This document shows, one piece after another, positions 2,782 to 57,708 of a DNA stretch of 64,000 nucleotides. The notes under the pieces were generated by a model. The model did not search any database, was not told the DNA's origin, and was given only the letters and a program-made list of their open reading frames with translations. A program made the position numbers and the translations under genes. The stretch's first letter is position 1, and every line of letters begins with the position of its first letter. This DNA is from Bdellovibrionales bacterium (GTDB lineage: Bacteria > Bdellovibrionota_C > UBA2361 > SZUA-149 > JAGRAN01): contig JAGRAN010000007.1 in NCBI GenBank assembly GCA_020434585.1, forward strand, positions 19,239 to 83,238, written 5' to 3'.

Positions 2782-4498
2782 TTGGTCAATCGTCTTAGCT
2801 TATCTCAGCTACATCGCTCTCAGCGGAATTAGACTGGGCCGAAAATCCGACTCTCTTGATTCATTTCTTCTTGCTGGAAGAAGCATGCCCTGGTGGGCTG
2901 TTGGTCTTTCCGTCATGGCGACTCAGATGAGTGCAATTACAATAGTTGGAACAACCGGGAAAGCGTATGAAGATGGCCTAAGGTTCATCCAGTTTTATTT
3001 TGGTTTGCCTTTGGCGATGGTCCTGCTGTGCATGACTCTGGTTCCCTTTTTTCACACCTCCCGCATTTACACTGCGTATGAGTACCTAGAGCGGCGTTTT
3101 GACGCGAAAACTCGCACACTCGCAGGCCTTGTATTTCTGCTGTCTAGAGGACTTTCCTGTGGTGTCGTGATCGCCGCACCTTCCGTAATACTTTCAATTG
3201 TTCTGGGATGGAATGAGCTTTTGATCATTCTGTCGATGGGGCTGACAACCGTTTTGTACACTATGATTGGCGGAGTCACAGCGGTAACTTGGACTGACGT
3301 TCGGCAGATGATCATAATTTTCTGCAGTCTAATCGCTTGTGCTTCCGTGATTTACCTGTCTCTACCTGACTCGGTAACCATTTCTGGCGCCGCCGTGCTT
3401 GCAGCCGCCTCCGGAAAGATGACCGCAGTCGACTTTAATCCCAGTTTTTCTGAAACCTACACTTTCTGGTCAGGCATGCTTGCTGGAACTTTCTTAATGC
3501 TCTCCTATTTCGGCTGCGACCAGAGCCAAGTGCAGAGATATTTAACCGCACGCTCAGTTGATGAAAGCAAATTATCGCTGTTGATGAGCGCAGTACTGAA
3601 AATACCTCTGCAACTGCTAGTGCTAGGCCTTGGGGTGTCTGTATTTGTGTACTATCAATTTCAGGCACCTCCTCTAGTTTTCGAACCAGGTGTCGCGACC
3701 CAAATCACTGACCCTGCCCAGCGCTCAAACTATGCCGGATTAGAGCGTAATTTTCAGCAAAACTGGATGGAAAAACGAAAGTTAGCCAAGCAGCTTGGCG
3801 AAGGGAAAAGTGGCCAACAACAAATTGCACGGTTCAATTCACTTCACGCTAGGGAAATTGAACTACGTCGCGAAGCGTTGGGACTCTTAGCTAAATCGAA
3901 AAATCAAAGCGAATATTCGGACGTCAACTACATTTTCCCGAAGTTCATTACAACAGTACTTCCGGTCGGGATGCTGGGCCTGATGATCGCGGCCATATTT
4001 GCTGCTGCTATGTCATCGGTATCATCAGAACTGAGCGCACTGGCTTCAACCAGCGTAATCGATGTCTACAAACGCCATATTCACCCCGAGGATGAAGACT
4101 CTCACTATCTAAGAGCGGCGCGGCTGCTAACTCTTTTCTGGGGTTTGTTCGCCTGTGGTGCCGCCTATTATGCAAGAAATCTCGGCGCTCTGATTGAGGT
4201 CGTAAACCGCTTCGGCTCTTTTTTTTATGGCGCCCTACTTGGCGTATTTGTGCTCGCATTAGGTTTCAAGAGGGCAAACAGCGCGGGCGCCTTTTATGGC
4301 TTAATCAGCGGTGTTCTCGTCGTGAGTGTATTCGACAACTTGCCATGGCTTGCCTCATCCACAGGAAGCACAGCGTTGCTCACACTCTCTGAACACTCAC
4401 GCATCAGCTTCCTGTGGTACAATGTAATCGGCGCCGTTACCGTAGTCCTAGTCGGTCTATTGATCTCTGCAGCAGGTCGTAGAGATCACGCAGCTTGA
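2765..4498 (+). CDS. Sodium:solute symporter (SSS/SLC5 family) transporter
   Basis: 577 aa with roughly 13 TM helices. The N-terminal segments match the SSS family (WAVGLSVMATQMSAITIVGTTGKAYEDG; LYTMIGGVTAVTWTDVRQM). A hydrophilic insertion of about 80 aa lies mid-protein. Confidence 0.85.
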   Translation: MMHWLDWSIVLAYLSYIALSGIRLGRKSDSLDSFLLAGRSMPWWAVGLSVMATQMSAITIVGTTGKAYEDGLRFIQFYFGLPLAMVLLCMTLVPFFHTSRIYTAYEYLERRFDAKTRTLAGLVFLLSRGLSCGVVIAAPSVILSIVLGWNELLIILSMGLTTVLYTMIGGVTAVTWTDVRQMIIIFCSLIACASVIYLSLPDSVTISGAAVLAAASGKMTAVDFNPSFSETYTFWSGMLAGTFLMLSYFGCDQSQVQRYLTARSVDESKLSLLMSAVLKIPLQLLVLGLGVSVFVYYQFQAPPLVFEPGVATQITDPAQRSNYAGLERNFQQNWMEKRKLAKQLGEGKSGQQQIARFNSLHAREIELRREALGLLAKSKNQSEYSDVNYIFPKFITTVLPVGMLGLMIAAIFAAAMSSVSSELSALASTSVIDVYKRHIHPEDEDSHYLRAARLLTLFWGLFACGAAYYARNLGALIEVVNRFGSFFYGALLGVFVLALGFKRANSAGAFYGLISGVLVVSVFDNLPWLASSTGSTALLTLSEHSRISFLWYNVIGAVTVVLVGLLISAAGRRDHAA

Positions 4499-4962
4499 GC
4501 AGGCAGCTCTATAACCGCTTCGACATATTTGCGCTTATGCTTCCTGCATGCACGATCTGGAGTTTCAACCGAGTCCAGTTCGCAGATCATCCAATACGCC
4601 AAATAGCCGTAGAAAATGTCGAATGCTATCCTGTGCGTCATGCCTCCAGCGTAAAGTTCCAACATGCTTAGTCCAACTGCAGCAAACATACAGTTTGCAC
4701 CCCATCGCTGGTAGTAAAGCAGGCCAATCAAGGCGGAGAGGCGCAAAGCGGAGTGCATTATCACTATCGGCATAGAAAGCAGTCCGCCATTGCTGTGAAC
4801 ATATTCGACTATGCTGATACCCGCAGACATGTCGTAGCCGAAAAATAAGATTGACGCGATTATGAAGAGAATTTCGTAGACGAAGTATGCGATCAACATC
4901 CATTTGAAGACTTCTGGAGCATGTTTAGAACCCATAAATACCTCCCGTTTAAAACCTGACAT
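4486..4962 (-). CDS. Hypothetical small membrane protein
   Basis: 158-aa ORF with four hydrophobic segments. The start is probably the Met of MGSKH at about 4935. An AT-rich promoter-like region lies upstream (4963-5160). Confidence 0.4.
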   Translation of the reverse strand: MSGFKREVFMGSKHAPEVFKWMLIAYFVYEILFIIASILFFGYDMSAGISIVEYVHSNGGLLSMPIVIMHSALRLSALIGLLYYQRWGANCMFAAVGLSMLELYAGGMTHRIAFDIFYGYLAYWMICELDSVETPDRACRKHKRKYVEAVIELPAQAA

Positions 4963-5191
4963 AAGACTAATATATCATATATTTTTGGACAAGTGTAGTT
5001 CACACATATTTTTTTAAAAACAAAACTACAAGCGGTTTCTCGCTGTTTAACTTGTCATTTCGGCATCTTAGGCTACCTCGACCTTGATAAGTCAGCCGAT
5101 AATATTAAGCACATTTGGTATTTCTGTGTCTATAACACATATAGGCAGGCTGCGCTCATTCTCAATTTTGGCTAGATAATTGGCGTTGCGG

Positions 5192-5301
5192 GCCTCTCCG
5201 GAACACTCTCCGGAGAGGCTCGCCGCAAGGGTATAAGGTTTTTTGCAGGATCCTGGGCGCATGGAGGCCGCATCCTGAAGCTCTTAGTTTCAGGATGCGG
5301 C
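5192..5301. promoter_or_regulatory. Two strong GC-rich hairpins in the 5' region of the GC-rich membrane-protein gene
   Basis: 5192-5219: GCCTCTCCGGA / TCCGGAGAGGC, an 11-bp perfect stem with a 6-nt loop. 5267-5301: GCCGCATCCTGAA / TTCAGGATGCGGC, a 13-bp perfect stem with a 9-nt loop. Both were read directly from the sequence. Confidence 0.3.
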
Positions 5302-5362
5302 AATTCTGCTGCGTCAAACCGGTCCTTATCCGCCTAAGGGATATAGGCACAGGAGGGTCCTC

Positions 5363-5863
5363 ATGTCTCTCATGCAGTTCACCTACACGGTTGCAATTCT
5401 GGCAATCGCGGTCAGCATGCTGGTGCTGCCGTTTACTCGGTCGTACTTCAAGCTGCTGCGGATGTTCTCGCTTACCTTCTTCGAGCAGGAGCGCTGCTGG
5501 AGGAGCTTCACCAAAGCACTGGTGAACGCCCTTCTCCATGGCGCTCTCGTCGCGGCTCCGTTCGCGATGCTGATCACGCTCGGAGATCACCGGCTCTGGA
5601 ACATCGCTCATTCGGGAGCGGGAATCGAGGTGGCGCACGTCCATCTCCCCCCGTCGCTCGGTGCAGTGTACAACCATGCGGTTCGTCGCTTCCTCATCGG
5701 GTTGCCAGGGTTCTTCCTGCTCAGCGCTTGTGTGGCATTCCTGCTGCGCGTGCTGGCAACGATGGACCTCGAACGGCATCGAAAGGTGCTTCTCGCGGCG
5801 GTCCTGTTTCTGCTGCTGAGCAGTCTCGGCTTCTGGTGGGCGATTTCGCACTTCGGATGGTAG
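5363..5863 (+). CDS. Hypothetical 4-TM membrane protein on a GC-rich island
   Basis: GGAGGG lies 8 nt before ATG 5363. The 166-aa product has four hydrophobic helices and GC3-biased codons. The antisense ORF 5162..5851 is His/Arg/Glu/Gln-rich and looks like a GC artefact. Confidence 0.45.
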   Translation: MSLMQFTYTVAILAIAVSMLVLPFTRSYFKLLRMFSLTFFEQERCWRSFTKALVNALLHGALVAAPFAMLITLGDHRLWNIAHSGAGIEVAHVHLPPSLGAVYNHAVRRFLIGLPGFFLLSACVAFLLRVLATMDLERHRKVLLAAVLFLLLSSLGFWWAISHFGW

Positions 5864-5871
5864 GCATTAGC

Positions 5872-5902
5872 CGGCGCCGACGCAGAGTATGCGTCGGCGC
5901 CG
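5872..5902 (+). terminator. GC-rich hairpin after the island gene (CGGCGCCGACGC-agagtat-GCGTCGGCGCCG)
   Basis: 12-bp perfect stem starting 9 nt after stop codon 5861-5863. There is no U-tract. It lies between convergent genes. Confidence 0.35.
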
Positions 5903-5953
5903 CGCGCCTCAACACCCTTGACGGTGAGTCTGATTTTCTCTGAACTCTACTGA

Positions 5954-7813
5954 CTAGCCACCCCATTCACAGGGAAGCTTCACGATTGACGCCGGTGGGT
6001 TTGCTCCCGGCGGCACATCACCGGCGATGAAGTTAGTCCCGCAAGACAGCTTGGCTCTGACTGAGTTACACTCGGTCGTTTGATTTGGGACAGAAAATCC
6101 CCACGCGATCCCAGACCCTTCAGGGATACCTGCTTCCTGAGCAGATTGGCTTTGTTCTCCGATGCTAACGTCGGTTACATACCCGTCAACAAAGCCAATT
6201 ATCTCAATTCTGGCGTCCGCATCTAAATGACGCAGTTCATTTCCGGACGCGCAGAGTCCGGATTCATCAATATTTGTCGCGGCGATGACAGGAAACTTTG
6301 CCTTCCAAACCCTTGTATCATCACTTATACCGCTGCGCGGTTTGAACGGAACGGTAACCATTGTGCCGCCTGGACCCTGCGCAGCTATCACATTCTCGGA
6401 ATCCGGCTCGACCCAACGGGAAGGACAAACCCCATGTGTCTTGAAAAAATTGTCGTCCAAGTCGAAAGGAGTTGCCGCCTGAACCCTGAAAATATTGGCT
6501 GAGTGTTCAATCGAACCTAATTCAGTGTCCCTCAGTCTGACCCGGCTTTGTTCCCCTAGAGCAGGATTCGATATCTTGTCCCATACGATATTGCTGTCAA
6601 AGCGCTCTCCGGTCATACCTTCGTTTAATAGCTGAAACTCTTCACCGAGCCGCATCGGCACACATCCGGCATGAAGTGGATCGTTGAATATACTCTCAAC
6701 TTTATCGAGAACCGTTCCAAATCGAACTTCACGGGAAGGAAGCCCAACGACCCCAAAGTGTTCAATACTGCTGGGATACTTCTTCGCATGGAAGCCCCAG
6801 CGCGTTTTTTGCTCGAGCGCAACTTCCGACATCGGCTGCCCGTGTTGTGTTACACACACTGGATTTTCGTCGTCGACTAATGCATCGAACCGAACTAATC
6901 CTCCCATAGCCTGGTTTGCTTCCTGGGCAGATTCATACATTGCCACGTCAGTGTGAGAATATGCTCCATCCGGTCTACAAGCTTCGGACGGAAACGTCGG
7001 CAGCGGACGATTCTCTGCCGCGACGCTGTTGTTTCTGCAGTTCTGCCCGGTGCAGAACTGGTCCGCCCTGGTAAACAAGCGGTCACCCTCACAAAGCCCT
7101 TGATCTAGTCCACCGTTTTCGCTGTTGCGGATTGCACAGGCCGGGACGGCAAACGGGACGGCGCAAACCGCATCAATCGGCCGCTCTACGATCGCAATTG
7201 CTTCAGCTTTATCTACGTGATCAACTCCTCCAAAAACACTTCCTATTAGCGGCTTTCGTGTACGCTCAATTACAACTCGAACAGCATTGGCGGATAATAT
7301 CGGTGGGATCCCGCGCGTCGCCTCGTTGTTCATCGCAGCATCGTGCGCTTCCAGCGATTGAAAGCCTCGATATTCGTTATGTCCGTCGAAATCATCATCC
7401 CGCACGAGCCATCGGCCCCGCTGAACAGTAATGATCATATCTAGAAATTCATATGTATCTTCATCAATTTCATTAGGCGGCGGTAGGTCTCCCGCACCGT
7501 TACTCTCTCCACCAGCTTTTCTAGCGACCGGATTGTACTCATACAACTCGTCCAGCATATCGGGAACAACCATTGAAACAACGTGATAGTCAGCAGTTCC
7601 CGTCGCGGCCAGCTTCGCAGCTTCCCAACAGGCGTAAGTGCCGCAAAGGTTTGTCGCCCCAGAATGTGCAGCTGCATCTACTGCAGCCTGAAGTTCAATT
7701 TCACCCACACGCACATAGTTCGTATTAACAACAAATGCCGCGATTCCAGCGAAGATTCCTAGCAGCAGCGCTAGCATCGGTATAACCTGCCCGCGCTCCT
7801 CTAAAGCAAACAT
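5954..7813 (-). CDS. tadG: TadG-like Flp-pilus assembly protein (large secreted pseudopilin-like protein)
   Basis: The N-terminal segment EERGQVIPMLALLLGIFAGIAAFVVNTNY...LQAAVDAAAHSGATNL matches the TadE/G-like N-terminal domain (Pfam PF13400 pattern ending in DAAALAGA). The long frame 5954..7882 has several candidate Met starts; I chose 7813 (MFALEE) to avoid overlapping the upstream gene. Confidence 0.6.
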   Translation of the reverse strand: MFALEERGQVIPMLALLLGIFAGIAAFVVNTNYVRVGEIELQAAVDAAAHSGATNLCGTYACWEAAKLAATGTADYHVVSMVVPDMLDELYEYNPVARKAGGESNGAGDLPPPNEIDEDTYEFLDMIITVQRGRWLVRDDDFDGHNEYRGFQSLEAHDAAMNNEATRGIPPILSANAVRVVIERTRKPLIGSVFGGVDHVDKAEAIAIVERPIDAVCAVPFAVPACAIRNSENGGLDQGLCEGDRLFTRADQFCTGQNCRNNSVAAENRPLPTFPSEACRPDGAYSHTDVAMYESAQEANQAMGGLVRFDALVDDENPVCVTQHGQPMSEVALEQKTRWGFHAKKYPSSIEHFGVVGLPSREVRFGTVLDKVESIFNDPLHAGCVPMRLGEEFQLLNEGMTGERFDSNIVWDKISNPALGEQSRVRLRDTELGSIEHSANIFRVQAATPFDLDDNFFKTHGVCPSRWVEPDSENVIAAQGPGGTMVTVPFKPRSGISDDTRVWKAKFPVIAATNIDESGLCASGNELRHLDADARIEIIGFVDGYVTDVSIGEQSQSAQEAGIPEGSGIAWGFSVPNQTTECNSVRAKLSCGTNFIAGDVPPGANPPASIVKLPCEWGG

Positions 7814-8824: not shown

Positions 8825-8963
8825 TTTTCAACCCCCGGCGCCGCAGCGCCAATCTGAATAACCATACGTGCTGTGCACAATGTGTGTTAATCACACATTT
8901 TTATGATAGCATGGCGTTCGAACCTTGTGCAAGCTCGCTAAGTGCCTAAAATTGCAGGGGTCT

Positions 8964-32730: not shown

Positions 32731-34965
32731 CTATTGATCAAGGTATGACAGCAGCTTATCTCGAAACTCTTCAAACTGGAGAGGCTTAGCGAGGTAGTCG
32801 TCCATCCCTGCTTCCAAACACCGCTCACGGTCATGATTCAAACTTCCTGCCGTAAGGGCAATAATCGGCACCTTTGCATTATGAAATGATTCTCGGATGA
32901 CGCGAGTCGCTTCATACCCGTCCATTTTCGGCATTTGACAGTCCATAATTATCGCATCGTATGCGACAGCGCGTGCGCGCTGAACTGCCTCCTCTCCGTC
33001 TGCGGCCAAGTCTGCGGTCACCCCGATCCGATCGAGATAGCGCACAAGCAGCCGTTGGTTAACTAGATTATCGTCTACTACTAAAACTACGCTATCCCTT
33101 GGAGCATTCGAACTAGACTCAACAGAATTCTGTGGTTTTATCGCGGAAATCATAATGGTTTCGCGCCTGCTGACATACTCCGAAAGTGCCCCTAATCTTA
33201 GCGGCAGCGTCAGGAAAACCGACTGATCAAATCTGGAATCACCGTCTTTAAGCAAATGTCGCGAACGCATCGAGCTAAGCAGCACGACATTTCGTACCAC
33301 CGGGTGCTTGCCGACGAATTCCCAAATTTCAGCCACCTGCTCAGCTGACACACAACATGCTTGAATATAAATATCTGTAGAGTGTTCTACTTGCCCGGCC
33401 AAACACTGTCTCAATTGTTCGACTGTGCTGCAGTCACAAATTTGAGCCCCCTGCTTGGCTAAATAAAGATCCAAGACTTGTCGCGTAACCCCCGGACGTC
33501 CTACATAGGCAAGTTTGTAGTTCTCAAACTTAGGGAATGAGACCAATTCTGAACCAGCAGCGGGCAGCTGAACATTCACAACGCAGGTAAAAACCGAACC
33601 CACACCAACGTCACTTTCGACCTCAATGTCACCTCCCATGGCAACCGCAAGTCGTTTGCAAATAGAAAGCCCTAATCCTGTTCCGCCGTACTGACGCGTG
33701 GTCGACGCGTCGGCCTGAGTGAAAGCATCAAACAATGTTGCGATTTTTTCTTCAGGAATGCCGATGCCGGTATCCTCAACTGAAATAGCAAGCAGCAGAT
33801 TACTCAACGACCGCTCACGAACCGCCACCCGAATTGCAACACCTCCCTCCGGCGTGAACTTTACGGCGTTATTTGCAAGATTCACTACAATTTGCTTGAT
33901 GCGCGCCGGGTCACCTATTACATTTCGCGGCACATCAGGCTCTACCATTACCCCAAGCTCAACTGACTTCTCGTCAGACAACGGCGACACGATGTAAGCG
34001 GAATCTTCCACCATCTGCAATAAATCAAACTCGACCGATTCAAAATCAACTGCGCCGGCATCGATTTTAGAATAATCCAGAATGTCGTTGATAACGGCTA
34101 AAAGCGCGTCGCCCGACTTACGCACCAACGAAGCAGACTCATACTGTTCTTCATCCAGTGAGGAGTCCATCAGAAGTTCTGTCATACCGATAATGCCATT
34201 TAGCGGCGTGCGTATCTCATGGCTCATATTAGCCAGGAACTCGCTTTTGGCTTGAGTTGCCTGCTCCGCCTGCTCAAGCGCAAGCGCCAACTCGCTGTTA
34301 AGCTTTTTCTGCTCGTCCTTCTCTGCGACTAGGTTTTGAATCAGCGCTTCATTGTCCATTCGCAACAGCAGAGTATTGCCAATGAACTCATTCATCATTT
34401 TCGAAACTCTGAAGAGCGTCACCATGTAGACAACTACCATCATCCCCATAACTGAGTGCATTTCATCGCCAATCATAAAAAACCTTGCTGCAACAGGAGC
34501 GCAAGTCAACACGATGAAGGTCCTAACGCACGGAAGCATTGGAGATAGGGTCGCAACTGCGCCAGTTGAAAGGCCAGCCGCGACAAAAGCCATAAAAACT
34601 TGGAAGCTGAGCTCTTTCGGCCAAAAGACGATTGGCAGCACGCACCACAACCCAGATTGCAGCAGGGCCCAGTAGAAAAATTTTTCTGCCCAAGGTTCAA
34701 AGTCGACAATAGCTGCAACACGCTTTCGAAACGTCATCGTCAACCAAAGTCTACCAGCAGTCGAACCGAGCAACGCAATCAACCAAACGTAAATCCCTCG
34801 GCCAACAAAGGCTCGCGAAAGAACAAACACCAGCAGTATTGCCACAAAAACAGACGCTATCAGCGATGTCCGCGAGGAGTTAAATAGAAGTTTGGTCTGT
34901 TCCCGATAGGCGCTTCGCTGCTGAGCAGATGCATCACTTGGCAAACGCACATCAGGTATCAACAT
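32731..34965 (-). CDS. Hybrid sensor histidine kinase / response regulator with a polytopic membrane sensor domain
   Basis: Roughly 6-7 TM helices at the N-terminus, a coiled coil, H-box [14 protein letters not shown], HATPase_c, and a C-terminal REC domain ([11 protein letters not shown]...[12 protein letters not shown]). Confidence 0.85.
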
Positions 34966-48754: not shown

Positions 48755-51514
48755 ATGTCTTCATCCAGATACATTATCGGAATCGACCTTGGCACGAGCA
48801 ATTGTGGCCTGGCCTACATCGACACTCTTAACGCGGACCAAGGAACTCAGCTGCTGCAAATCAGTCAACAACAGACTGAGCAAGCCGTCGGTTCTTCAAG
48901 ATTCCTGCCGTCGTTCTTGTTTCTGCCGCAAAAGCGCGGCGACGTAACTCCGAGTCCAGTCGTCGGTCAATTTGCCAAGAGACAGTTAAGTTACCTTCCC
49001 GGTAGAGTCGTCAGCAGCGCCAAATCTTGGCTCGCCCACCAAGATTCCCTAGGGACAGTCCAAATTCTTCCGTGGGGCAGTGACGAGATTAATTGGCAGG
49101 ACAAAGTTTCAGCCGTCGACGCCAGCGCTGCGTATCTGCAGCACCTTGCCCAAAACTGGAACGAAACCATTGGCAGCATAGAAGCGTCGTATCGCTTTGA
49201 ACAACAACGAGTAATCATCACTGTCCCAGCATCCTTCACCGAAGCCGCCCAAAGTTTGACACTTGAGGCTGCCCGAAAAGCTGGTTTTCCGTCTGACGTG
49301 CGCCTGCTCGAAGAACCCCAGGCCGCTCTGTATTACTGGCTTGAACATCAAGCCGACAGCGCGGACTTAAGCACGGCCCTTGGCCAGATCTTTCCCGACA
49401 TTTCAGACCAGCCGAAGCATGTCTTGGTATGTGATGTGGGCGGCGGTACTACGGATTTCAGCTTGTTCGAACTGCGGATGAAATCCGCTGGAGTAGAAAT
49501 CGTTCGTTCTAAGGTCAGCGACCACTTGCTGTTAGGCGGTGACAATATCGACTTTGCACTTGCGGAACACTTGGAACCGCAGCTCCGCAGAAACAATAAG
49601 CCACTCTCTACGGCCGAATGGATTAAACTAACCGCCCAGTGCCGAGAAGCAAAGGAAACTGTCTTTGGGTCCGAGCAAGCTTCGACCGACACTTTTCACA
49701 TCTCAATTGCCGGAAGCGGATCCAGCCTTTTCGACTCGTCAAGAACTGCGTCACTGCCATTAAGCACCTTACAATCTCTGGTGACCTCAGTGTTTTTTCC
49801 GAGCTGCTCAGCCAAAGAAGCCGCACCGCGCATGTTGACCGACCCAAGCGAAATCGGTCTGCCGACCGTAGCGGAACGTGCAATCACCCGCCACCTATCT
49901 ACATTTTTGGATGGAGTTGAGATTGACGGAATTCTTTACGCCGGAGGCTCTCTCGCACCACGGTTCTTGCGCGACAGAATTACGGAAATTGTCTCCTCAT
50001 GGATGCAAGGAGAGTTGGTCGTTCTTGAGAATCCTGAGATAAGTGAAGCCGTAGCACGAGGCGCCGCACGCTTTGGCCACGTCCTCGAGCATCCGAAAGA
50101 TGTAATTCACGGTGGATATCCCCGCTCACTTTATATCGAAGTTGAAGGACGAAAACATGGCAAGAAATTGATTTGCATTGTGGCCAAAGGCGCTGCGCTC
50201 GGTACTTCCATCGAGTTGGATTCCCAGCCTCTGCGAGCTCTTGTAAATCAGCCGATTCGCATTCAACCTTATTACTCAAGCAGTCGTTCCACTGATGCCG
50301 TCGGTGACATTATAGACTTCGCGGAGACTCACGAGATCCATCCTCTCCCTATGCTTCAAACCGTGCTGGAACTTCCTCCGGGACGCCCACGTCCACCGCA
50401 CGATCAGCTGCAGGTCAATCTAAACGCCACAATCTCTGAAACCGGACTACTCAACGTAACTTGTCATGAAGCTGCCCAGTCGAGCACAGCTGCACATGCC
50501 TGGGCGTTAACCTTTAACGTGCGCAACCAAGCAGAAGAGAATCCAGAAAGTACTGTTGAAGAAGAATCACAGTTTGAACTTCCCACAGGATTTGAACCCG
50601 CTTGCGAAGAAATTGAGGCTGTATTCGGCAAGGCAAAGCAAACCACAGCAGACATTAAACCAAAACGATTGGTTTCTTCGATGGAGCGGTTGCTGTCCCA
50701 AAAGCGCGCCGACTGGCACCCACTTTTGCTGAGGAAATTTTGGCCGGTACTCGAGCGAGGTATGGCAAGAAGAAACCGGAGCGTCGCGCATGAATCTACT
50801 TGGCTCTATCTGGCTGGATTCTTACTACGTCCTGGATACGGTACATCAGTCGATTCAACTTATATGCTTCAGCTTTGGAGATGCTTTGATTCAGGCCTGC
50901 GGAACCCAAAAGAAGCTCAAGTTGCCGATCAATGGAACATTATGTGGCGGCGAGTTGCAGGAGGACTCGAGCAGGCTAAACAAGAACAATTATTTCACCT
51001 CACTTCGCCCAAGATATTCAACAAGGGAAAATCCGCCAGTCTTGAATCGATCCGTTTAGCTTGCTCGCTTGAACGCATTTCGATTGAGGCCAAAGAAAAG
51101 ATGGGCTCGTATCTTCTCAAGCGCATCTGTGCAAAGGGCGCCGCAGCTCGTGAACACCTGATGTGGGAACTGGGCAGACTTAGCTGCCGTGTTCCGATGT
51201 ACGCCAGCACTCAGCATGCAGTCCCGCCTGACATTCTCATGAATTGGTTTGGCAAGCTGCAAAATGTAGATTGGTCGAAAAGTGAATTAACCCGCTTTCA
51301 AGCAATTTTTTCTCAAGCATGCCGAGTTTCTGGTGATCGCAGCGTGGACTTGAGTTTAGATCAACAGGCTCAAGTACTGCAGTTTATGCGAGGAACCGGG
51401 GCTCCAACTGACTGCATCAACGTTATCGAGAATTTCGTTGAATCAAGCGATCAAGACAAGCGGATGCTCTTCGGAGAATCACTTCCCCTCGGACTAAAGC
51501 TCGTAAAATCCTAA
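48755..51514 (+). CDS. Atypical Hsp70-family protein (919 aa) with a non-canonical C-terminal region
   Basis: The N-terminal NBD motifs are clear: IIGIDLGTSNCGLAYID (phosphate 1) and VLVCDVGGGTTDFSLFEL (phosphate 2). Beyond the NBD the sequence does not resemble a DnaK substrate-binding domain. Confidence 0.8.
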   Translation: MSSSRYIIGIDLGTSNCGLAYIDTLNADQGTQLLQISQQQTEQAVGSSRFLPSFLFLPQKRGDVTPSPVVGQFAKRQLSYLPGRVVSSAKSWLAHQDSLGTVQILPWGSDEINWQDKVSAVDASAAYLQHLAQNWNETIGSIEASYRFEQQRVIITVPASFTEAAQSLTLEAARKAGFPSDVRLLEEPQAALYYWLEHQADSADLSTALGQIFPDISDQPKHVLVCDVGGGTTDFSLFELRMKSAGVEIVRSKVSDHLLLGGDNIDFALAEHLEPQLRRNNKPLSTAEWIKLTAQCREAKETVFGSEQASTDTFHISIAGSGSSLFDSSRTASLPLSTLQSLVTSVFFPSCSAKEAAPRMLTDPSEIGLPTVAERAITRHLSTFLDGVEIDGILYAGGSLAPRFLRDRITEIVSSWMQGELVVLENPEISEAVARGAARFGHVLEHPKDVIHGGYPRSLYIEVEGRKHGKKLICIVAKGAALGTSIELDSQPLRALVNQPIRIQPYYSSSRSTDAVGDIIDFAETHEIHPLPMLQTVLELPPGRPRPPHDQLQVNLNATISETGLLNVTCHEAAQSSTAAHAWALTFNVRNQAEENPESTVEEESQFELPTGFEPACEEIEAVFGKAKQTTADIKPKRLVSSMERLLSQKRADWHPLLLRKFWPVLERGMARRNRSVAHESTWLYLAGFLLRPGYGTSVDSTYMLQLWRCFDSGLRNPKEAQVADQWNIMWRRVAGGLEQAKQEQLFHLTSPKIFNKGKSASLESIRLACSLERISIEAKEKMGSYLLKRICAKGAAAREHLMWELGRLSCRVPMYASTQHAVPPDILMNWFGKLQNVDWSKSELTRFQAIFSQACRVSGDRSVDLSLDQQAQVLQFMRGTGAPTDCINVIENFVESSDQDKRMLFGESLPLGLKLVKS

Positions 51515-51604
51515 ATTCCCCATGCCTAAGCTCGGCTTTTTAAAATTGCGCCCTAGCAAGTCCAAGGGGGAAAGGCTATCCTCTACCTACTGAACGAGGA
51601 GTGC

Positions 51605-52006
51605 TTGAGATTCATGAAAGACGCTTTTTTGATGGTGACAACTCCCGATTTACCCGGGCATGAGATAGAAAAATGTCTCGGTGTCGTGTGGGGTGAAGCT
51701 GTTATTAACATCAACGTATTTCGGGAAGCCTTGTCTACTATCACTGAAATTCTTGGGGCAAGGTCTCGCCCTTTCGAGAGTCGCCTTAAGGCAGCGCGAA
51801 CTATTGCGCTAAACGAAATGATTCTTCAAGCAGCGAAGCGAGACGCAAATGCGATTGTCGGTCTGCACTTTACCCACGAGACACCTCGCGGTTCGATGAT
51901 AATGGTTGTCGCCAGTGGGACTGCAGTTCGCGCCAAAGGTCCATCGGTCGATACAAGTTCCGATAAATCAGCTGAAACTGAGCAGAATAACGGCGACGCC
52001 TCCTAA
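51605..52006 (+). CDS. ybjQ: YbjQ/UPF0145 family protein
   Basis: The segment GVVWGEAVININVFREALSTITEILGARSRPFESRLKAARTIALNEMILQAAKRDANAIVGLHF...GSMIMVVASGTAVRA aligns well with E. coli YbjQ. Confidence 0.75.
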   Translation: MRFMKDAFLMVTTPDLPGHEIEKCLGVVWGEAVININVFREALSTITEILGARSRPFESRLKAARTIALNEMILQAAKRDANAIVGLHFTHETPRGSMIMVVASGTAVRAKGPSVDTSSDKSAETEQNNGDAS

Positions 52007-52014
52007 CCTGAGAG

Positions 52015-52299
52015 CTACAGTCTGCCGTTTAGCTGAACCCGTAAATTTCCAACAAACGATTCGAGGTTGTCGACGGCTTTGTCGAAATCATCTTCAATAA
52101 AAGTGGAGCTAAAAATTGCCTGAGTCTCAGGGGTAAGAGTTTCTAGAGTAACAGACGCACCGTTTACGCGAATTGTGACTTGAGATCCGATTATATCGCT
52201 TAGAACAAGAGAACTCCCGGAAGTCATGTCAAGCCTATCGCCAGCCGAATTTATGCGGATGGTAAATCCTTCGTTGTTTGCTTCGAATATACGAGACAT
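52015..52299 (-). CDS. Hypothetical small protein
   Basis: GAGGGGAAA lies immediately upstream of the ATG. 94 aa with a plausible composition and no recognisable family. Confidence 0.35.
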   Translation of the reverse strand: MSRIFEANNEGFTIRINSAGDRLDMTSGSSLVLSDIIGSQVTIRVNGASVTLETLTPETQAIFSSTFIEDDFDKAVDNLESFVGNLRVQLNGRL

Positions 52300-52502
52300 T
52301 TTCCCCTCAGAAAGTTTGTCAAAGAGACAATTATAGTGGCTCTGGTGACCCTAATCGAGTCCCCCAGCCAACTAGATGCTCATAAAACCACGAGCGATTC
52401 GTGAAGGTTTCGTTTGAAATCAGCGAGTTCACCGACTCTCGACACACATCTTCTGCATACCGGTTTTCTAAGAAACCATTACTCATTGTACAAAATGCTG
52501 TA

Positions 52503-52537
52503 GCAGCCGGTCGGGAATACTCTTCCCAACCGGCTGC
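52503..52537 (-). terminator. Hairpin terminator of the GC-rich hypothetical gene
   Basis: GCAGCCGGTCGGGAA-tactc-TTCCCAACCGGCTGC, a 15-bp stem with one mismatch, 20 nt after stop codon 52557. On the minus strand it is followed by ATTTTG. Confidence 0.4.
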
Positions 52538-52556
52538 TTGCTGGCCTGCATCTTGA

Positions 52557-53021
52557 TCAATCCAGAGCGCTCGGCCTCGGCAAGTTTCTGCTTTGCAGCC
52601 ACATGAGCGCTTCCCGCCGCAGCTTGCACTCTTCTTCCAGCCGTTCCGTGAGCGGCAGCTTGTCGTAGGCGCCGTGAAGTAGGTCGACGAAGTTCCTGGT
52701 GTCGCGATGCTCGTACTCCCCGTTCGGAAAGTCACGGTACGCAACCCAGATGAGCTCGAAGCGCCCCATAACCACCTCGAAGAGGTGAAAACGCTGTCGA
52801 TACGCTCCGCCATCGTCAGCTGCGATGACGAGCACGTAGGGTGCCGCCATGAGCACAACGCTCTTCGAACGACTCTTGGCGTCGAGGTGACCAGCTACGT
52901 CCGAACGACGCCCGCTGAGGACCAGTCGGCAACCTCCTTTGTCGCCGGGAAACAGCTCGATAGGGCTCGAATTCCCGCAACGAACGCTCTCGACAATCGG
53001 GCGAAATTCACGTGGTATCAC
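52557..53021 (-). CDS. Hypothetical protein on a GC-rich island
   Basis: GTG start with GGAGG 7 nt upstream. 154 aa with GC3-biased codons. The antisense ORF 52331..52858 is Ser/Thr/Arg/Trp-rich junk. Confidence 0.45.
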   Translation of the reverse strand: MIPREFRPIVESVRCGNSSPIELFPGDKGGCRLVLSGRRSDVAGHLDAKSRSKSVVLMAAPYVLVIAADDGGAYRQRFHLFEVVMGRFELIWVAYRDFPNGEYEHRDTRNFVDLLHGAYDKLPLTERLEEECKLRREALMWLQSRNLPRPSALD

Positions 53022-53210
53022 TACCTTACCTCCGGGTAACTGACTTGACTTGCCAGGGCGCCATGGGCAACCCTCCTACCAGCGACCATTTAAACGAACC
53101 GTTTCGCCGGTATGCAGTAAAGGTGTGTCTCGATTACTCGTTAAATAAGGCAAAGAACCAGAAAAATGTGTTGGCAGCACATACTCTTATAGCAGCTAAT
53201 TAGTGTGTTA

Positions 53211-54026
53211 TCAAGATGCCTTGCCGCGCGACCTTCTCTCAGTCCAGCTAAATGCCCCTAACACAACCCTTCCTCCTCCTTCGCTGGTTTTGGAGGGCGC
53301 ATGGTCTAGGTCGTGTTTCGCCAAGTATGCACGCGCACGCTTGTGAAACCGTTCTCCTTCTTTAAGCAGCCACTTGCGAATAACTGGCAGCATAGCAGGC
53401 GATATATTGTCGAATTCAGTCCTCAAATGAAGGTTACGAGTCTCCGGCCCAACAAGCACATTTTCCTCTACGGCCGACGATATTGCCTTAATATCTCTGT
53501 AAAGCAGGTTCATCCCCCTGGACTGCATGGAATGGTAGGACTGAGCGCTGGCCAATCTTACTATTCGCTCGCCGCGAACTTCTGCCAGCTGTCGTCTCAG
53601 TAATTCCTTTCTTGTCGCTAGAATATCAGCGTTTTTGTCGACACTTCTAACAAGTTGGCCAAACTGGTTGTTCTTACCTTTAAATGAAAGCGGCTGCGGG
53701 GTGTTAGTCTCGTCGCAAAATAGCTTATTGACCTCCCAAGCACACAATAGTTTCGCGATAATCCCTGGTGTGAACTCCGCGCTTCCTGGTTTGCGCCGAT
53801 AATCACGAACCTGCATCTTCGAAAGCCCTGTCAGTATCTCTAGCTGACTTTCGCTGCTTACCCCTTGGCTTTTAAGAAGTTCTGTCTCGGCTACCTCTAC
53901 AAATAACTTTCGTACCGCATCGACTACTTCAGACGCATTAATTGCACGCTCTATGCAGCATTCAATTAGCGGCCTCAGTGTCGGACATAGCAGCTGCTCC
54001 GAAACTCTCTGCTGTCGCTTACTCAT
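53211..54026 (-). CDS. Hypothetical protein (possible DNA-binding regulator)
   Basis: 271 aa, basic and helical. I cannot assign a family. A perfect 7-1-7 palindrome lies 26 bp upstream of its start. Confidence 0.45.
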   Translation of the reverse strand: MSKRQQRVSEQLLCPTLRPLIECCIERAINASEVVDAVRKLFVEVAETELLKSQGVSSESQLEILTGLSKMQVRDYRRKPGSAEFTPGIIAKLLCAWEVNKLFCDETNTPQPLSFKGKNNQFGQLVRSVDKNADILATRKELLRRQLAEVRGERIVRLASAQSYHSMQSRGMNLLYRDIKAISSAVEENVLVGPETRNLHLRTEFDNISPAMLPVIRKWLLKEGERFHKRARAYLAKHDLDHAPSKTSEGGGRVVLGAFSWTERRSRGKAS

Positions 54027-54198
54027 TTGGCAAACCCCTGCGCTATTGTTATGTGTGAATCACACAGTCTTATGACTTTTAATACGTCATTTTTATCAAC
54101 AAACTTTAGCTTAGCGTGCTAAGCGAGTTCCCTCAGCGCTTTAACCTGTTGTAAATACTTGTATAAGTTTCAAAACTGCGAATCTGCAGAAAATAATT

Positions 54199-54227
54199 TT
54201 GCATCCCGGCTCATTTCCGTGTAATAT
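54199..54227 (+). promoter_or_regulatory. Sigma70-like promoter (TTGCAT - 17 nt - TAATAT)
   Basis: -35 TTGCAT at 54199-54204 and -10 TAATAT at 54222-54227, with a 17-nt spacer and an A-rich discriminator. Read directly from the sequence. Confidence 0.4.
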
Positions 54228-54460
54228 AAAAAATGTGCTGATAACACATAATATGCAACACAAGGAGGGAAGCCCGTCATAACAAGAGAAAGTAAGCAAA
54301 AAGTCGACAGGCGACTCTCTGAAGCAAAAGATTTTGCAGAATTTTAAGGATTTACCCTCAACGACAACGTAACAACCTACCCGAAGGGTTCCCGCCCCTC
54401 CCCAGCTAACGGAACCCTTCACCCTTCTTAACTGGACCTCTCACATTTATGTGAATCCAA

Positions 54461-54492
54461 ATCCCGGGTTTCCCTCACCCGGGATTTTTTTA
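54461..54492 (+). terminator. Rho-independent terminator with no upstream protein-coding gene
   Basis: ATCCCGGGT-ttccctc-ACCCGGGAT, a 9-bp stem, followed by TTTTTTT. It lies about 100 nt upstream of the sulfatase-like CDS. Confidence 0.6.
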
Positions 54493-54590
54493 TGTACTCA
54501 AGCGAATATGCTAGATTTTCTGTCTTAGAAATGGATGCTGGTCCAATTTATGAAACTTGGACCGGAAGTTAAGAATTTGTTGCTCACCGC

Positions 54591-56192
54591 ATGCAAAGCA
54601 AGCCACTTATCGAAAAACCTATTTACCCTCTGCTCTTCGCTATTTACCCCTTTCTCTATCTGTATGCAGAGAATTCGGATATCGCATCGCTGGGCGACCT
54701 GCTCGTCACTTGCACGGCTGCCGTGTTAGGGACCGCCCTAGTATTTTTGATCTTTGCTAAGTTATTTCACTCGACTGCCAAAGGAGCAGTTGCTTCTGCG
54801 GCAGCGGCACTCCTGTTCTGCACTCATGGATATATGTACCAAGGCCTGATGCACTATGCTTGGACGTCAACTTCTGGGGATTTTGTAAGCAGACGGCTGA
54901 GGGCGCTGAATTTTCATTTTGAACTGGGACTAGTCGAGCTGTTTGTTCTGCTAGCTATTCTACTATTACTGCGAAGAACTAGGTCAATTCCGCCGGTTGT
55001 TCCCGCATTTCTCAATACTGTTTCATCCGCTCTAATAATCCTTGCTGCAATCAATTCATTTTCGGTAGGGGCGTCTGACGCAGACCAAACTGACAATCTG
55101 CCAGCAGCTGAGTCTGAACAAGTATCTTCTCAGACCACCCTGCCTGACATTTACTACGTGATTCTAGACGGATACGGCAGGCAAGATAAGCTTCGTGAAC
55201 ACTTCGGATTCGACAATTCGGAGTTTATTGACTGGCTGCGCAGTAAAGGATTCTTCGTTGCGAATCACAGCAGGCCAAATTTTTATTGGACCTATCTGTC
55301 CCTCTCTTCGTCGCTAAATTTCGAGTACATCACATATTTAAGTGAGCGCCTTGGCGAAAAATCAAGAAATCGCACTATCCCGTATCGAATGATTAAGTAC
55401 AACAATCTGATCAAAACCCTCCGCCGGCTCGGATATCGAATTTACCATCTCCAGTCGACTTGGGGTGCAACGATGCATAATCCCGCCGCAGACCGAAACA
55501 TCCCTTGCAGTAATGCCCTTTTCAACAATGAATTCTACCGAGTTGCCGTAGAGGTCACGGCCCTATCAGCATTCCCGCATGTCGTTAGCTTCGACCTTGC
55601 TCAGTGCCACTTGAACAATTTTGCTCATCTTGCAGAGACTGCGACTGAGGACGGGCCTAAATTTATCTTCGCCCATTTCATTCCCCCTCACCATCCGTAC
55701 CTGTTCGACAGCAGCGGCAATATTTTGAGAAACGCGACTGTGTCTAATCAATTCGAGTTTCAAAAGCTGCTTTGGGGCGATCGCAATGCTTACAAAGAGC
55801 AGATTTCTTTTGTTAATAAAAAGGTTCGCGAAGCTGTAGAAAAAATCCTGCAGAATTCGTCCACGCCGCCCATTATTGTCCTACAGTCGGATCATGGACC
55901 GACGCTGTTGCAGGAGACTGACGCTGTAGCGGACGATACTCGGTTGGCGAATTTTACAGCTGTGCTCTCGCCTGGCGCGCCAAATTTGATCCCTGATAAC
56001 ATTACACCAGTGAATATCTTTCGTTTGATATTGCGCCACTACTTTGGTTTGGCTTTAGAGCCTCTACCAAACAGACATTATAAATCTGGTTACCACAGCC
56101 CTTTTGCCTTTGAGGAAGAATTCTTTCCTACGCAAAGTGGTCCGGAGACGCTGAGTCAAGCATCAGCTGGAAATTCGGCGGGCAATCTCTAG
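54591..56192 (+). CDS. Sulfatase-like / alkaline-phosphatase-superfamily membrane protein (LTA-synthase / phosphoethanolamine-transferase-like topology)
   Basis: Four or five N-terminal TM helices, then an extracytoplasmic catalytic-like domain (DIYYVILDGYGRQD...). The family call is approximate. Confidence 0.55.
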   Translation: MQSKPLIEKPIYPLLFAIYPFLYLYAENSDIASLGDLLVTCTAAVLGTALVFLIFAKLFHSTAKGAVASAAAALLFCTHGYMYQGLMHYAWTSTSGDFVSRRLRALNFHFELGLVELFVLLAILLLLRRTRSIPPVVPAFLNTVSSALIILAAINSFSVGASDADQTDNLPAAESEQVSSQTTLPDIYYVILDGYGRQDKLREHFGFDNSEFIDWLRSKGFFVANHSRPNFYWTYLSLSSSLNFEYITYLSERLGEKSRNRTIPYRMIKYNNLIKTLRRLGYRIYHLQSTWGATMHNPAADRNIPCSNALFNNEFYRVAVEVTALSAFPHVVSFDLAQCHLNNFAHLAETATEDGPKFIFAHFIPPHHPYLFDSSGNILRNATVSNQFEFQKLLWGDRNAYKEQISFVNKKVREAVEKILQNSSTPPIIVLQSDHGPTLLQETDAVADDTRLANFTAVLSPGAPNLIPDNITPVNIFRLILRHYFGLALEPLPNRHYKSGYHSPFAFEEEFFPTQSGPETLSQASAGNSAGNL

Positions 56193-57708
56193 TCAGCAGT
56201 GCGCCAGTCGGAACAGTCGGGTAAAGCTCTTCGAAATTGCGGATATCCGTATAGCTGATACGCCTTAGAATTTGGGAGCGGTTCACAGCGTCAGGTGTTT
56301 TAACTCCGGCTGCGGCCAGCAGCTCGACTGCACTCTCTACCGTTTCGTGATGAAAATGGGCTACCCGTTGCTCCTTTTCTTTAGGAACCAGACCCACTGT
56401 TAGCTGAGGGTTGTGAGTTGTAATCCCAGTTGGGCAGGAATTACTGTTGCACTCAAGGGCTTGAATGCAGCCTAACGCTAGCATCATTCCGCGCGCAGAA
56501 TTGCAGTAGTCTGCACCGAGAGCTAAGGTTCGAACGATATCAAATCCTGTAACAATCTTGCCCGAAGCACATATCTTTATTTTATCGCGAAGTCCGAACC
56601 CACGCAGCATATCATCAACAAAGACCAGACCTTCCTTCAGCGGAGTCCCGACGGCGTTTGAAAACTCAAGAGGTGCTGCACCAGTGCCTCCTTCGCCTCC
56701 ATCGACTGTTATATAGTCTGGAGCAATTCCGCTGGCGATCATCGCTTTGCAAATGGCAATAAAATCTACGGGCCGGCCGACACAAAGCTTAAACCCAACA
56801 GGCTTTCCGCCGGAAGCTTCCCTCAGACGCGCAACAAACTCCAACAGGCCTCGGGGAGTTGAGAATGCGCTGTGTGCAGGAGGAGAAAGTACTTTTGTAT
56901 GAGGCTCAACTCCTCTGATCTTCGCAATTTCCGGAGTATTTTTAACTGCCGGAAGAATGCCTCCATGCCCAGGTTTCGCGCCCTGTGACAACTTCACTTC
57001 GATCATGCGGACCGATTCATGACTTGCGTTGGATTTGAACATCTCTTCATCAAACTCGCCGGCTAGAGTTCGGCAGCCAAAATAACCTGTTCCTATCTGC
57101 CAAACCAAGTCACCCCCCGGCTGAAGGTGATAGGGGCTCAACCCGCCTTCTCCGGTATTATGTGCAAATCCGCCAATCCGCGCGCCGCCATTTAGCGCGA
57201 GCACCGCGTTTGCGCTTAAAGAACCAAAGCTCATGGCAGAAATATTCAGCAGGCTAGCGCTGTACGGTTTGGCACAGCCGCTGCCAATGCTAACTCGGGG
57301 ATGGTTGTCCAAATCTTCTAAATGTAGCGGGTTTAATGAATGGTTCAGCCATTCGTATCCGACTTCATATACATCAAGCTGAGTTCCAAAAGGTGTAGTA
57401 TCAAGATCTCGCTTCGCTCGCTGGTATACAACGGACCGGTTAACCCTGTTGAACGGACGACCATTAATATCTGACTCGACGAAATACTGGTAAATTTTTG
57501 GACGCAGATCTTCCATAATGTAGCGTCCTCTACCAACCAGCGGGTAGTTACGCTTAATCGTTTGCTGAGTCTGGAGCATGTCGGAAACTCCGACGGAGAT
57601 CAGCGGTATGACCACAAGCAGCGTCCATAAAATCGGTGTCCAAAAAACTGAGACGGCTAGAATAAAAATCAGCACAGCTGCTGAAGAAACAACAAATACT
57701 TTTCTCAT
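56128..57708 (-). CDS. Glutamate-synthase-domain-2-like FMN-dependent oxidoreductase (COG0069 family) with an N-terminal TM anchor
   Basis: ISAMSFGSLS...GEGG...VWQIGTGYFGCR and the downstream Gly-rich FMN/Fe-S region are typical of GltB domain 2 homologues. Confidence 0.8.
   Translation of the reverse strand: MRKVFVVSSAAVLIFILAVSVFWTPILWTLLVVIPLISVGVSDMLQTQQTIKRNYPLVGRGRYIMEDLRPKIYQYFVESDINGRPFNRVNRSVVYQRAKRDLDTTPFGTQLDVYEVGYEWLNHSLNPLHLEDLDNHPRVSIGSGCAKPYSASLLNISAMSFGSLSANAVLALNGGARIGGFAHNTGEGGLSPYHLQPGGDLVWQIGTGYFGCRTLAGEFDEEMFKSNASHESVRMIEVKLSQGAKPGHGGILPAVKNTPEIAKIRGVEPHTKVLSPPAHSAFSTPRGLLEFVARLREASGGKPVGFKLCVGRPVDFIAICKAMIASGIAPDYITVDGGEGGTGAAPLEFSNAVGTPLKEGLVFVDDMLRGFGLRDKIKICASGKIVTGFDIVRTLALGADYCNSARGMMLALGCIQALECNSNSCPTGITTHNPQLTVGLVPKEKEQRVAHFHHETVESAVELLAAAGVKTPDAVNRSQILRRISYTDIRNFEELYPTVPTGALLTRDCPPNFQLMLDSASPDHFA

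Follow-up and report, generated by a model that had tools for sequence, protein, structure and literature searches.

The intergenic locus and its candidate transcription unit

The 64,000-nucleotide (nt) stretch of Bdellovibrionales DNA analysed here, hereafter the window, contains a 564-nt gap between a DUF6502 gene on the reverse strand and a gene for a sulfatase-like membrane protein on the forward strand, and this gap holds the RNA element that is the subject of the present analysis (Table 1). On the evidence of its sequence, the interval 54234-54491 of the forward strand is a real, selected and structured non-coding RNA of approximately 260 nt, which ends at an intrinsic terminator. The sulfatase-like gene, whose homologues are named by NCBI as LTA synthase family or sulfatase-like hydrolase/transferase proteins, starts 99 nt past the T-run of this terminator, in agreement with the distance of about 100 nt given in an earlier description of the locus made from the letters alone (the original prediction).

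The upstream boundary is less sharply defined. A near-consensus sigma-70 promoter had been proposed there, and the hexamers TTGCAT and TAATAT are indeed present; their agreement with the TTGACA and TATAAT consensus is, however, 3/6 and 4/6, respectively (7/12 in total), and the promoter scan called TTGCAT-17-TAATAT neither in the window nor in the orthologous locus L001 described below, with which its near-identity is the sole support for this promoter. Transcription is predicted to start approximately 7 nt past TAATAT, at a palindrome of the form TGTG-N7-CACA. Sequence conservation begins at the -35 box in comparison with L001, and near the -10 region in comparison with a third relative, L037, and it stops a few bases past the U-tract of the terminator; such a footprint is that expected of a transcription unit. 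The interval also folds more stably than shuffled sequences, with a minimum free energy (MFE) of -66.4 kcal/mol and a z-score of -3.1.

Conservation and structure of the RNA

Scanning for proteins related to the sulfatase-like one identified the orthologous locus L001 in a metagenome-assembled genome (MAG) labelled 'bacterium' (sulfatase-like protein 67% identical), where the gene order is as in the window and the RNA (3213-3473) lies inside a homologous element at 3178-3475; a protein search gave the third relative, L037 (sulfatase-like protein 60% identical), with a more diverged copy of the RNA at 5640-5904. Both RNA homologues lie in conserved synteny and, from the alignments, show conservation well beyond the neutral level. 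For the 3' domain (155 nt), identity to the window is 94% in L001 and 78% in L037; the flanking coding DNA is 61% and 58-61% identical, respectively, and the upstream spacer 44% and 33%, while the spacer between the terminator and the sulfatase-like gene is 42% identical in L037. The segment from the promoter to +30 is 87% identical in L001; the 5' half or 5' domain of the RNA falls to 63% in L001 and to approximately 20%, barely alignable, in L037.

The functional core of the RNA is its 3' part of 150 nt, composed of a single-stranded block, hairpin 1, a C/U-rich linker, hairpin 2 and the terminator, and the variable 5' domain is a structured, fast-evolving appendage. In the latter are found a G-box, GGAGGG (54264-54269), a CUCUCU (54315-54320) and a small hairpin GTCG/CGAC (54303-54315), together with the conserved islands GCAACA and CAUAAC. 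The single-stranded block at the head of the core is the same in L001; L037 departs from it at three places, by a U-to-C change and two deletions of 1 nt. In hairpin 1, the arm GAAGGGTTCC (54383-54392) pairs perfectly with GGAACCCTTC (54411-54420), and the loop includes CCCCTCCCC; this perfect 10-bp stem with an 18-nt loop was already noted in the original prediction, and it is kept in both relatives, 10 of 10 pairs forming in the three sequences, with one compensatory change from C-G to U-A in L037, where the loop is still C-rich (CCCUCCCCC). Two GGA motifs, AAGGAU (54346-54351) and CUGGAC (54433-54438), are likewise invariant in the three RNAs; the former resembles the core of a CsrA-binding site, and the window contains, at 32731-34965, a gene for a BarA/GacS-like sensor kinase.

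The terminator comprises 11 pairs, 6 of them G-C, followed by a T7 tract at 54485-54491, and its hairpin has an energy of approximately -14 kcal/mol. The earlier description of it as a strong intrinsic terminator with CCCTC in the loop holds. Among the terminator-like sites of a 10-kb scan it ranks first, and it is called in all three genomes; in each of them a GC-rich hairpin runs directly into the U-tract, on the same strand as the transcript upstream. One compensatory change from A-U to G-C and one G-U wobble are seen in its stem in the three-sequence alignment. Taken over the whole 3' domain, a model-guided alignment shows that hairpin 1, hairpin 2 and the terminator together have 25 pairs, each of which forms in the window, L001 and L037, with two compensatory changes and one wobble among them. 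Substitutions vary 5 of 50 paired columns vs. 33 of 108 unpaired columns (Fisher p = 0.005), and four of the five varying paired columns belong to the two compensatory pairs.

A covariance model built from the 3' domain and run on 34 loci, including 25 with distant sulfatase-like homologues and 5 with distant DUF6502 proteins, recovered just the three known copies; nhmmer, blastn and the covariance model gave no RNA homologue in the DUF6502 loci L025, L026, L028, L035 and L036, in the 23 sulfatase-homologue loci L002-L024, or in L038 and L039/L040. Two scans of viral contigs with patterns invariant in all three RNAs gave no match. Metagenome matches of the 19-mer ACCCTCAACGACAACGTAA in L029 and L030 were rejected as chance occurrences, that in L029 lying apparently within coding sequence; this 19-mer is also too strict, as L037 reads ACCTCAACGACAACGCAA at that place. 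In a database of 5.8 billion proteins, no further relatives closer than approximately 43% were found for three different neighbour proteins, which indicates that the clade is very sparsely sampled. No family of Rfam 15 matched any part of the window at the gathering threshold; at E <= 10, the best matches (Yfr10, anti-hemB, GadY and NsiR1) reached 13.7-20.9 bits vs. thresholds of 39-51, and they rest mainly on the terminator and the hairpin that precedes it.

Table 1. Features of the DUF6502/sulfatase-like intergenic region, in coordinates of the window
Feature	Position	Strand	Description
Palindrome, candidate operator O3	53167-53181		TGTGTTGGCAGCACA (TGTG-N7-CACA), just 3' of the DUF6502 stop codon; equivalent in L001 at 1895
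DUF6502 gene	53211-54026	-	271 aa; Pfam PF20112, E = 1.2e-13; divergent from the RNA
Palindrome, candidate operator O1	54052-54066		TGTGTGAATCACACA, perfect 7+1+7 palindrome, 26-40 nt upstream of the DUF6502 start codon
Promoter-like TTGCAT-17-TAATAT	54199-54227	+	Read from sequence; TTGCAT 54199-54204, 17-nt spacer, TAATAT 54222-54227
Palindrome, candidate operator O2	54234-54248	+	TGTGCTGATAACACA, predicted +1 to +15; possible 5'-terminal RNA stem-loop
Variable 5' domain	54249-54345	+	63% identical to L001; approximately 20%, barely alignable, with L037
Near-invariant single-stranded block	54346-54382	+	AAGGAUUUACCCUCAACGACAACGUAACAACCUACCC, with C-rich ACCCUCA (54354-54360) and a CA-rich run
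Hairpin 1	54383-54420	+	10-bp stem, 18-nt loop carrying CCCCUCCCC
Linker	54421-54440	+	ACCCUUCUUAACUGGACCUC, more C/U-rich motifs; CUUCUU and ACUGGACCUCUCACA invariant in all three sequences
Hairpin 2	54441-54454	+	UCACA-N4-UGUGA; 5 pairs invariant in all three sequences, variation limited to loop bases
Intrinsic terminator	54459-54491	+	GC-rich stem of 10-11 bp (54459-54468/54478-54487), loop UUCCCUC, U7
Sulfatase-like membrane protein gene	54591-56192	+	533 aa; Pfam Sulfatase, E = 8e-8; possible read-through target

C-rich motifs and the small-RNA interpretation

The best reading of these data, held with moderate confidence, is that of an independent, terminator-ended small RNA (sRNA) with C-rich, anti-Shine-Dalgarno-like seeds. 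Five motifs, namely ACCCUCA in the single-stranded block, CCCCUCCCC in the loop of hairpin 1, CCCUUCUU, CCUCUC and the terminator loop, are C-rich in the three sequences and are situated in loops and linkers; the mean unpaired probability is 0.85-1.0 for the motifs in the loops of hairpin 1 and the terminator, and 0.38-0.74 for those in the linkers. Since the host makes use of Shine-Dalgarno sequences (33% of starts vs. a background of 10%), exposed C-rich motifs could occlude ribosome-binding sites. The C-rich patches would then act as seeds that pair with G-rich sequences, most likely the Shine-Dalgarno regions of messenger RNAs encoded elsewhere, and by analogy with RsaE/RoxS and the cuckoo RNAs of Alphaproteobacteria the outcome would be blocked translation or altered messenger stability. 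This reading is favoured by the conserved terminator, by the seed-like exposure of the motifs, and by the absence of the element from all the more distant sulfatase-like homologues; moreover, the downstream neighbour varies, with a gene for a DUF6174 lipoprotein placed between the RNA and the sulfatase-like gene in L001 (region 3471-3965). Of the usual marks of an sRNA gene, a terminator, the lack of an open reading frame (ORF) and conservation beyond neutral are all present, and the promoter-like sequence, a match of only 7/12, is seen in two of the three genomes.

Several observations weigh against this interpretation. The promoter is unrecognisable in L037, and the predicted start of the RNA is placed only by the point where conservation begins. 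Covariation is thin with three sequences, as 51 of 500 shuffles reach the observed score, and RNAduplex energies against the 54 translation-initiation regions of the window were no better than those against random windows. In all three genomes, moreover, the RNA immediately precedes the sulfatase-like operon on the same strand, and this holds for L037 too, which has no DUF6502 gene beside the RNA; in L001 only approximately 36 nt separate the U-tract of the terminator from the next start codon.

The latter two facts are those that a cis-acting leader would explain. According to this alternative, which has a low but appreciable probability, the RNA would be an attenuator or riboswitch-like leader acting on the operon that follows it (just the sulfatase-like gene, or that gene preceded by DUF6174), its 3' domain would bind a factor modulating read-through, be it protein, small RNA or ligand, and the terminated RNA would be a by-product. 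The very high conservation of unpaired nucleotides is an aptamer-like pattern, and the scan called no sigma-70-like promoter between the terminator and the downstream gene in the window, L001 or L037. Nevertheless, a possible extended -10 promoter, TGCTAGATT at 54509-54517, may drive the operon independently. The element is absent, as judged with the covariance model, at the 25 loci with more distant sulfatase-like homologues (29-48% identity), and a terminator-like site of any kind occurs upstream in only 2 of 23 sulfatase-homologue loci, which shows that such an arrangement is not typical of the gene family; the lack of an Rfam match also speaks against a leader. As regards the site that contains TGCTAGATT, the whole promoter-like sequence TTATGT-16-TGCTAGATT (54490-54517) overlaps the end of the terminator U-tract, and it is partly kept in L001 (TTATGT-16-TGCTAAGTT) and not in L037.

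The specific version of the leader put forward in the original prediction, a terminator/antiterminator switch operated by GGAGGG, is not supported. This box, reported at 54269-54276, actually lies at 54264-54269. Alternative pairings for it do exist in the window, as had been claimed: the MFE fold pairs it with CCCUUCUU, the consensus of two sequences with CCCUC, and the isolated 5' domain with CUCUCU, this local CUCUCU being the most consistent partner. In L037, however, the box is replaced by GGCCGG, which is unable to pair with the C-rich loops, and hence conservation does not extend to the G-box pairings. Folding without the terminator's 3' arm left the 5' arm unpaired in the MFE folds of the window and L001 (per-nucleotide pairing probabilities of 0.03-0.66, mostly <0.45); no upstream partner is predicted for this arm, and therefore no antiterminator is encoded. 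In addition, pairing of the box to the terminator loop would leave the terminator stem closed; in the sRNA reading, the terminator would be constitutive. What can be drawn at like positions in all three sequences is a helix P1, with its 5' strand at nt 29 and its 3' strand at nt 83-86 (L001, UCU.AGGGA/UCCCU.AGA; L037, CGGCCGG/CCGGCCG, at like distances from the 5' end), and the modelled folds suggest that P1 may close the variable 5' domain. P1 shows apparently extensive covariation between L001 and L037 but is not claimed as established, as it is not the MFE fold in L037, where forcing it costs 5 kcal/mol relative to an alternative fold, and its positional homology depends on an alignment made by hand. 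Of the two options in the original prediction, an independent sRNA of about 260 nt or a terminator/antiterminator leader, the discrete, selected and structured RNA is upheld by conservation, compensatory changes and the lack of a conserved ORF, and a cis-acting role of this RNA keeps some probability, although a low one, given its constant position in all three genomes.

A different function for the same motifs, distinctly less probable than a leader, would be that of a protein-binding RNA, either a sponge or a scaffold, in which four to five CCCUC-like repeats (ACCCUCA, CCCCUCCCC, CCCUUCUU, CCUCUC and CCCUCA) bind a C/U-specific protein, for example one with a KH domain, in analogy to the GGA repeats of CsrB/RsmZ that titrate CsrA. 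Several similar C-rich motifs are conserved, those in the loops are nearly always unpaired, and no messenger target is evident in the window; but the copies are few and unlike one another, no candidate binding protein was identified, and base-pairing seeds explain the pattern equally well. An RNA of the CsrB/RsmZ type proper was rejected, since it requires many GGA motifs in loops, and only the two GGA are conserved in the three sequences, none of them in a hairpin loop.

Very little probability attaches to the view that there is no functional RNA and that the conservation reflects operators and promoter elements of the flanking genes, acting at the DNA level, plus an ordinary terminator. The operator-like palindromes are real and enriched, and the 5'-terminal palindrome shows no RNA-type covariation; however, the best-conserved part lies 110-260 nt downstream of the promoter and not at it, compensatory changes preserve two helices, substitutions avoid stems, and a terminator with no ORF upstream has only this RNA to terminate. 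Finally, a small protein encoded on either strand is so improbable as to be negligible, in spite of a AAGGAGGG (54262-54269) that looks like a ribosome-binding site and of a 93-aa antisense ORF (54141..54422), because no start codon follows AAGGAGGG, a box absent in L037, the sole ORF shared by the window and L001 has its start at the -35 box, where it does no more than mirror the identity of the DNA, and the antisense ORF, already dismissed as junk in the original prediction, has no counterpart in L001; the statement that the interval holds no credible ORF is borne out, as none is conserved on either strand.

Palindromes and the DUF6502 gene

The motif TGTG-N7-CACA occurs 7 times in the window vs. 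0.57 expected, and three copies, starting at 53167, 54052 and 54234, surround the DUF6502 gene. O1 is kept in L001 as TGTGTTAATAACACA, and L037 has a site at a similar distance (5484); O2, at the predicted start of the RNA, is kept as TGTG-N7-CACA in L001 (3213-3227) and L037 (5640-5654). As the TGTG and CACA arms of O2 never vary, they provide no covariation at the RNA level. Copies are also found around the DUF6502 gene of L001, and in L028, L035 and L036 exact ones lie beside DUF6502 genes of 31-39% identity. Of the loci that lack both DUF6502 and the RNA, one (L038) has a copy and 30 have none. The window palindromes at 5125-5139, 8881-8897, 33424-33438, 53167-53181, 54052-54066 and 54234-54248 have an extended form that is roughly ATGTGT-N5-ACACAT, and their mostly intergenic position suggests a regulon of some transcription factor that extends beyond the locus studied.

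The presence of the palindromes both at the +1 of the RNA and around DUF6502 genes suggests operator control. The palindrome at +1 probably serves a transcription factor as its operator, and this factor may be the DUF6502 protein itself, in which case the RNA would be made only in response to a signal; by analogy with known divergent pairs, the arrangement suggests that DUF6502 may be an autoregulated DNA-binding protein that controls the divergent RNA gene. Two facts run counter to this part of the interpretation. An orthologue of the DUF6502 gene adjoins the RNA in L001, but the gene is absent beside the RNA in L037 (region 4902-6000), where two palindromes are nevertheless kept; and the DUF6502 protein gave no sequence match in the PDB, no helix-turn-helix match in Pfam, and no significant Foldseek match, so that it cannot be presented as a recognisable helix-turn-helix protein. 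Its AlphaFold2 model (pLDDT 74) contains a helix-helix-beta-hairpin segment, and the Foldseek matches, the best of which has a non-significant E = 0.38, are mostly winged-helix proteins at the top of the list.

At L035, an operator-like palindrome TGTGCATTTTGCACA precedes by approximately 170 nt a strong terminator with a stem of 12 bp and T7, both on the reverse strand (648-861). This unit of approximately 200 nt is divergent from a DUF6502 gene whose product is 37% identical to that of the window; it is G-rich, not homologous to the RNA described here, and without an Rfam match. Such an operator-to-terminator unit is a hint of a module that predates the family of the RNA sequence.

Other features of the neighbourhood

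A cluster of neighbouring genes is shared by the three genomes (48755-54026 in the window, L031, and L037:790-5363) and encodes DUF2760, Hsp70-like and YbjQ-like proteins and small unannotated ORFs; the Hsp70-like protein, of approximately 920 aa, carries DUF3731 and has more than 3,000 homologues annotated only as Hsp70 family. On the other side, the sulfatase-like gene (ending at 56192) and a convergent glutamate-synthase-domain gene on the reverse strand (56128-57708) would share 65 nt at the 3' end, provided that the longest ORFs are the right ones.

Comparison with known systems

The closest parallels to the proposed sRNA are found in two groups. In the Firmicutes sRNA RsaE/RoxS, multiple C-rich regions pair with G-rich Shine-Dalgarno sequences (PMC4409812). 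The window RNA, read as an sRNA that runs from its own promoter to a terminator, resembles it, several C-rich regions being conserved within loops and linkers, and the transcription of RsaE/RoxS under dedicated regulators may be counted as a further likeness; it differs in that its motifs are of the CCCUC type instead of CCCC and that its host belongs to an uncultured, Gram-negative-like lineage. RsaE/RoxS is approximately 100 nt long with two hairpins, as against approximately 260 nt for the window RNA. Membership in this family was rejected on account of the differences in length and architecture and the absence of a model match, no RsaE match being found in the Rfam scan of the window even at E <= 10.

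The cuckoo RNAs (CcsR1-4 and NfeR1/alpha-r14) are built from 2-4 hairpins side by side, every one of which displays CCUCCUCCC in its loop; this sequence resembles an anti-Shine-Dalgarno, an action by occlusion of the ribosome-binding site has been proposed, and the module is limited to hairpins of 24-50 nt and loops of 9-27 nt (PMC4615179). Hairpin 1 of the window RNA, with 38 nt, an 18-nt loop and a C-rich nonamer of anti-Shine-Dalgarno type, falls within both size limits; in contrast, it is the only hairpin of this kind in the RNA, it carries CCCCUCCCC as its motif (in L037, CCCUCCCCC), and linkers and the terminator loop hold the remaining C-rich motifs. As CCUCCUCCC is absent from the element, a single hairpin is present, Rfam gives no match and the host is not an alphaproteobacterium, the RNA was not assigned to the cuckoo group.

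Regarding its genomic arrangement, the RNA is divergent from a candidate regulator, with which it shares palindromes, one of them overlapping the promoter or start of the sRNA. The same layout is known from oxyR-oxyS, gcvA-gcvB and sgrR-sgrS, which are divergent regulator/sRNA gene pairs; the differences are that DUF6502 is not a known transcription factor and that L037 has no DUF6502 gene next to the RNA. With terminator-type riboswitches and attenuators, the RNA has in common a long conserved 5' element and an intrinsic terminator, co-oriented and directly upstream of a gene, but it lacks an antiterminator alternative, a multi-helix junction and an Rfam match, and it is not tied to the sulfatase-like gene family outside this clade. 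Other classes, namely 6S RNA, signal recognition particle (SRP) RNA, tmRNA, RNase P, CsrB-type sponges, retrons, CRISPR and TnpB-associated RNAs, were discarded because Rfam gives no match and neither the architecture nor the neighbouring genes fit.

Significance

In summary, the RNA is ordinary in kind and new in family, and is most likely a new, lineage-specific C-rich sRNA of anti-Shine-Dalgarno type under operator control. There is a small chance that it represents an undescribed regulator/RNA module, in which DUF6502 would be a new family of DNA-binding regulators specific for TGTG-N7-CACA, in control of a divergent RNA whose exposed CCCUC-type motifs would act globally on G-rich ribosome-binding sites, or in which the 3' core would serve as the sensor of a factor-dependent attenuator for an envelope enzyme of the LTA synthase family. 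Current understanding would not be overturned; the finding is of value for annotation and as an experimental system that is small and clean. The link between the palindromes and DUF6502 provides a first testable functional hypothesis for this domain, that of an autoregulated transcription factor. If confirmed, the RNA would constitute a new family of sRNAs from an uncultured lineage that has hardly been sampled and whose nearest named protein relatives are MAGs of Bdellovibrionota, Oligoflexales, Deltaproteobacteria and Gammaproteobacteria at approximately 40% identity, and it would be an independent case of the design with multiple C-rich anti-Shine-Dalgarno seeds, so far described in Firmicutes and Alphaproteobacteria.

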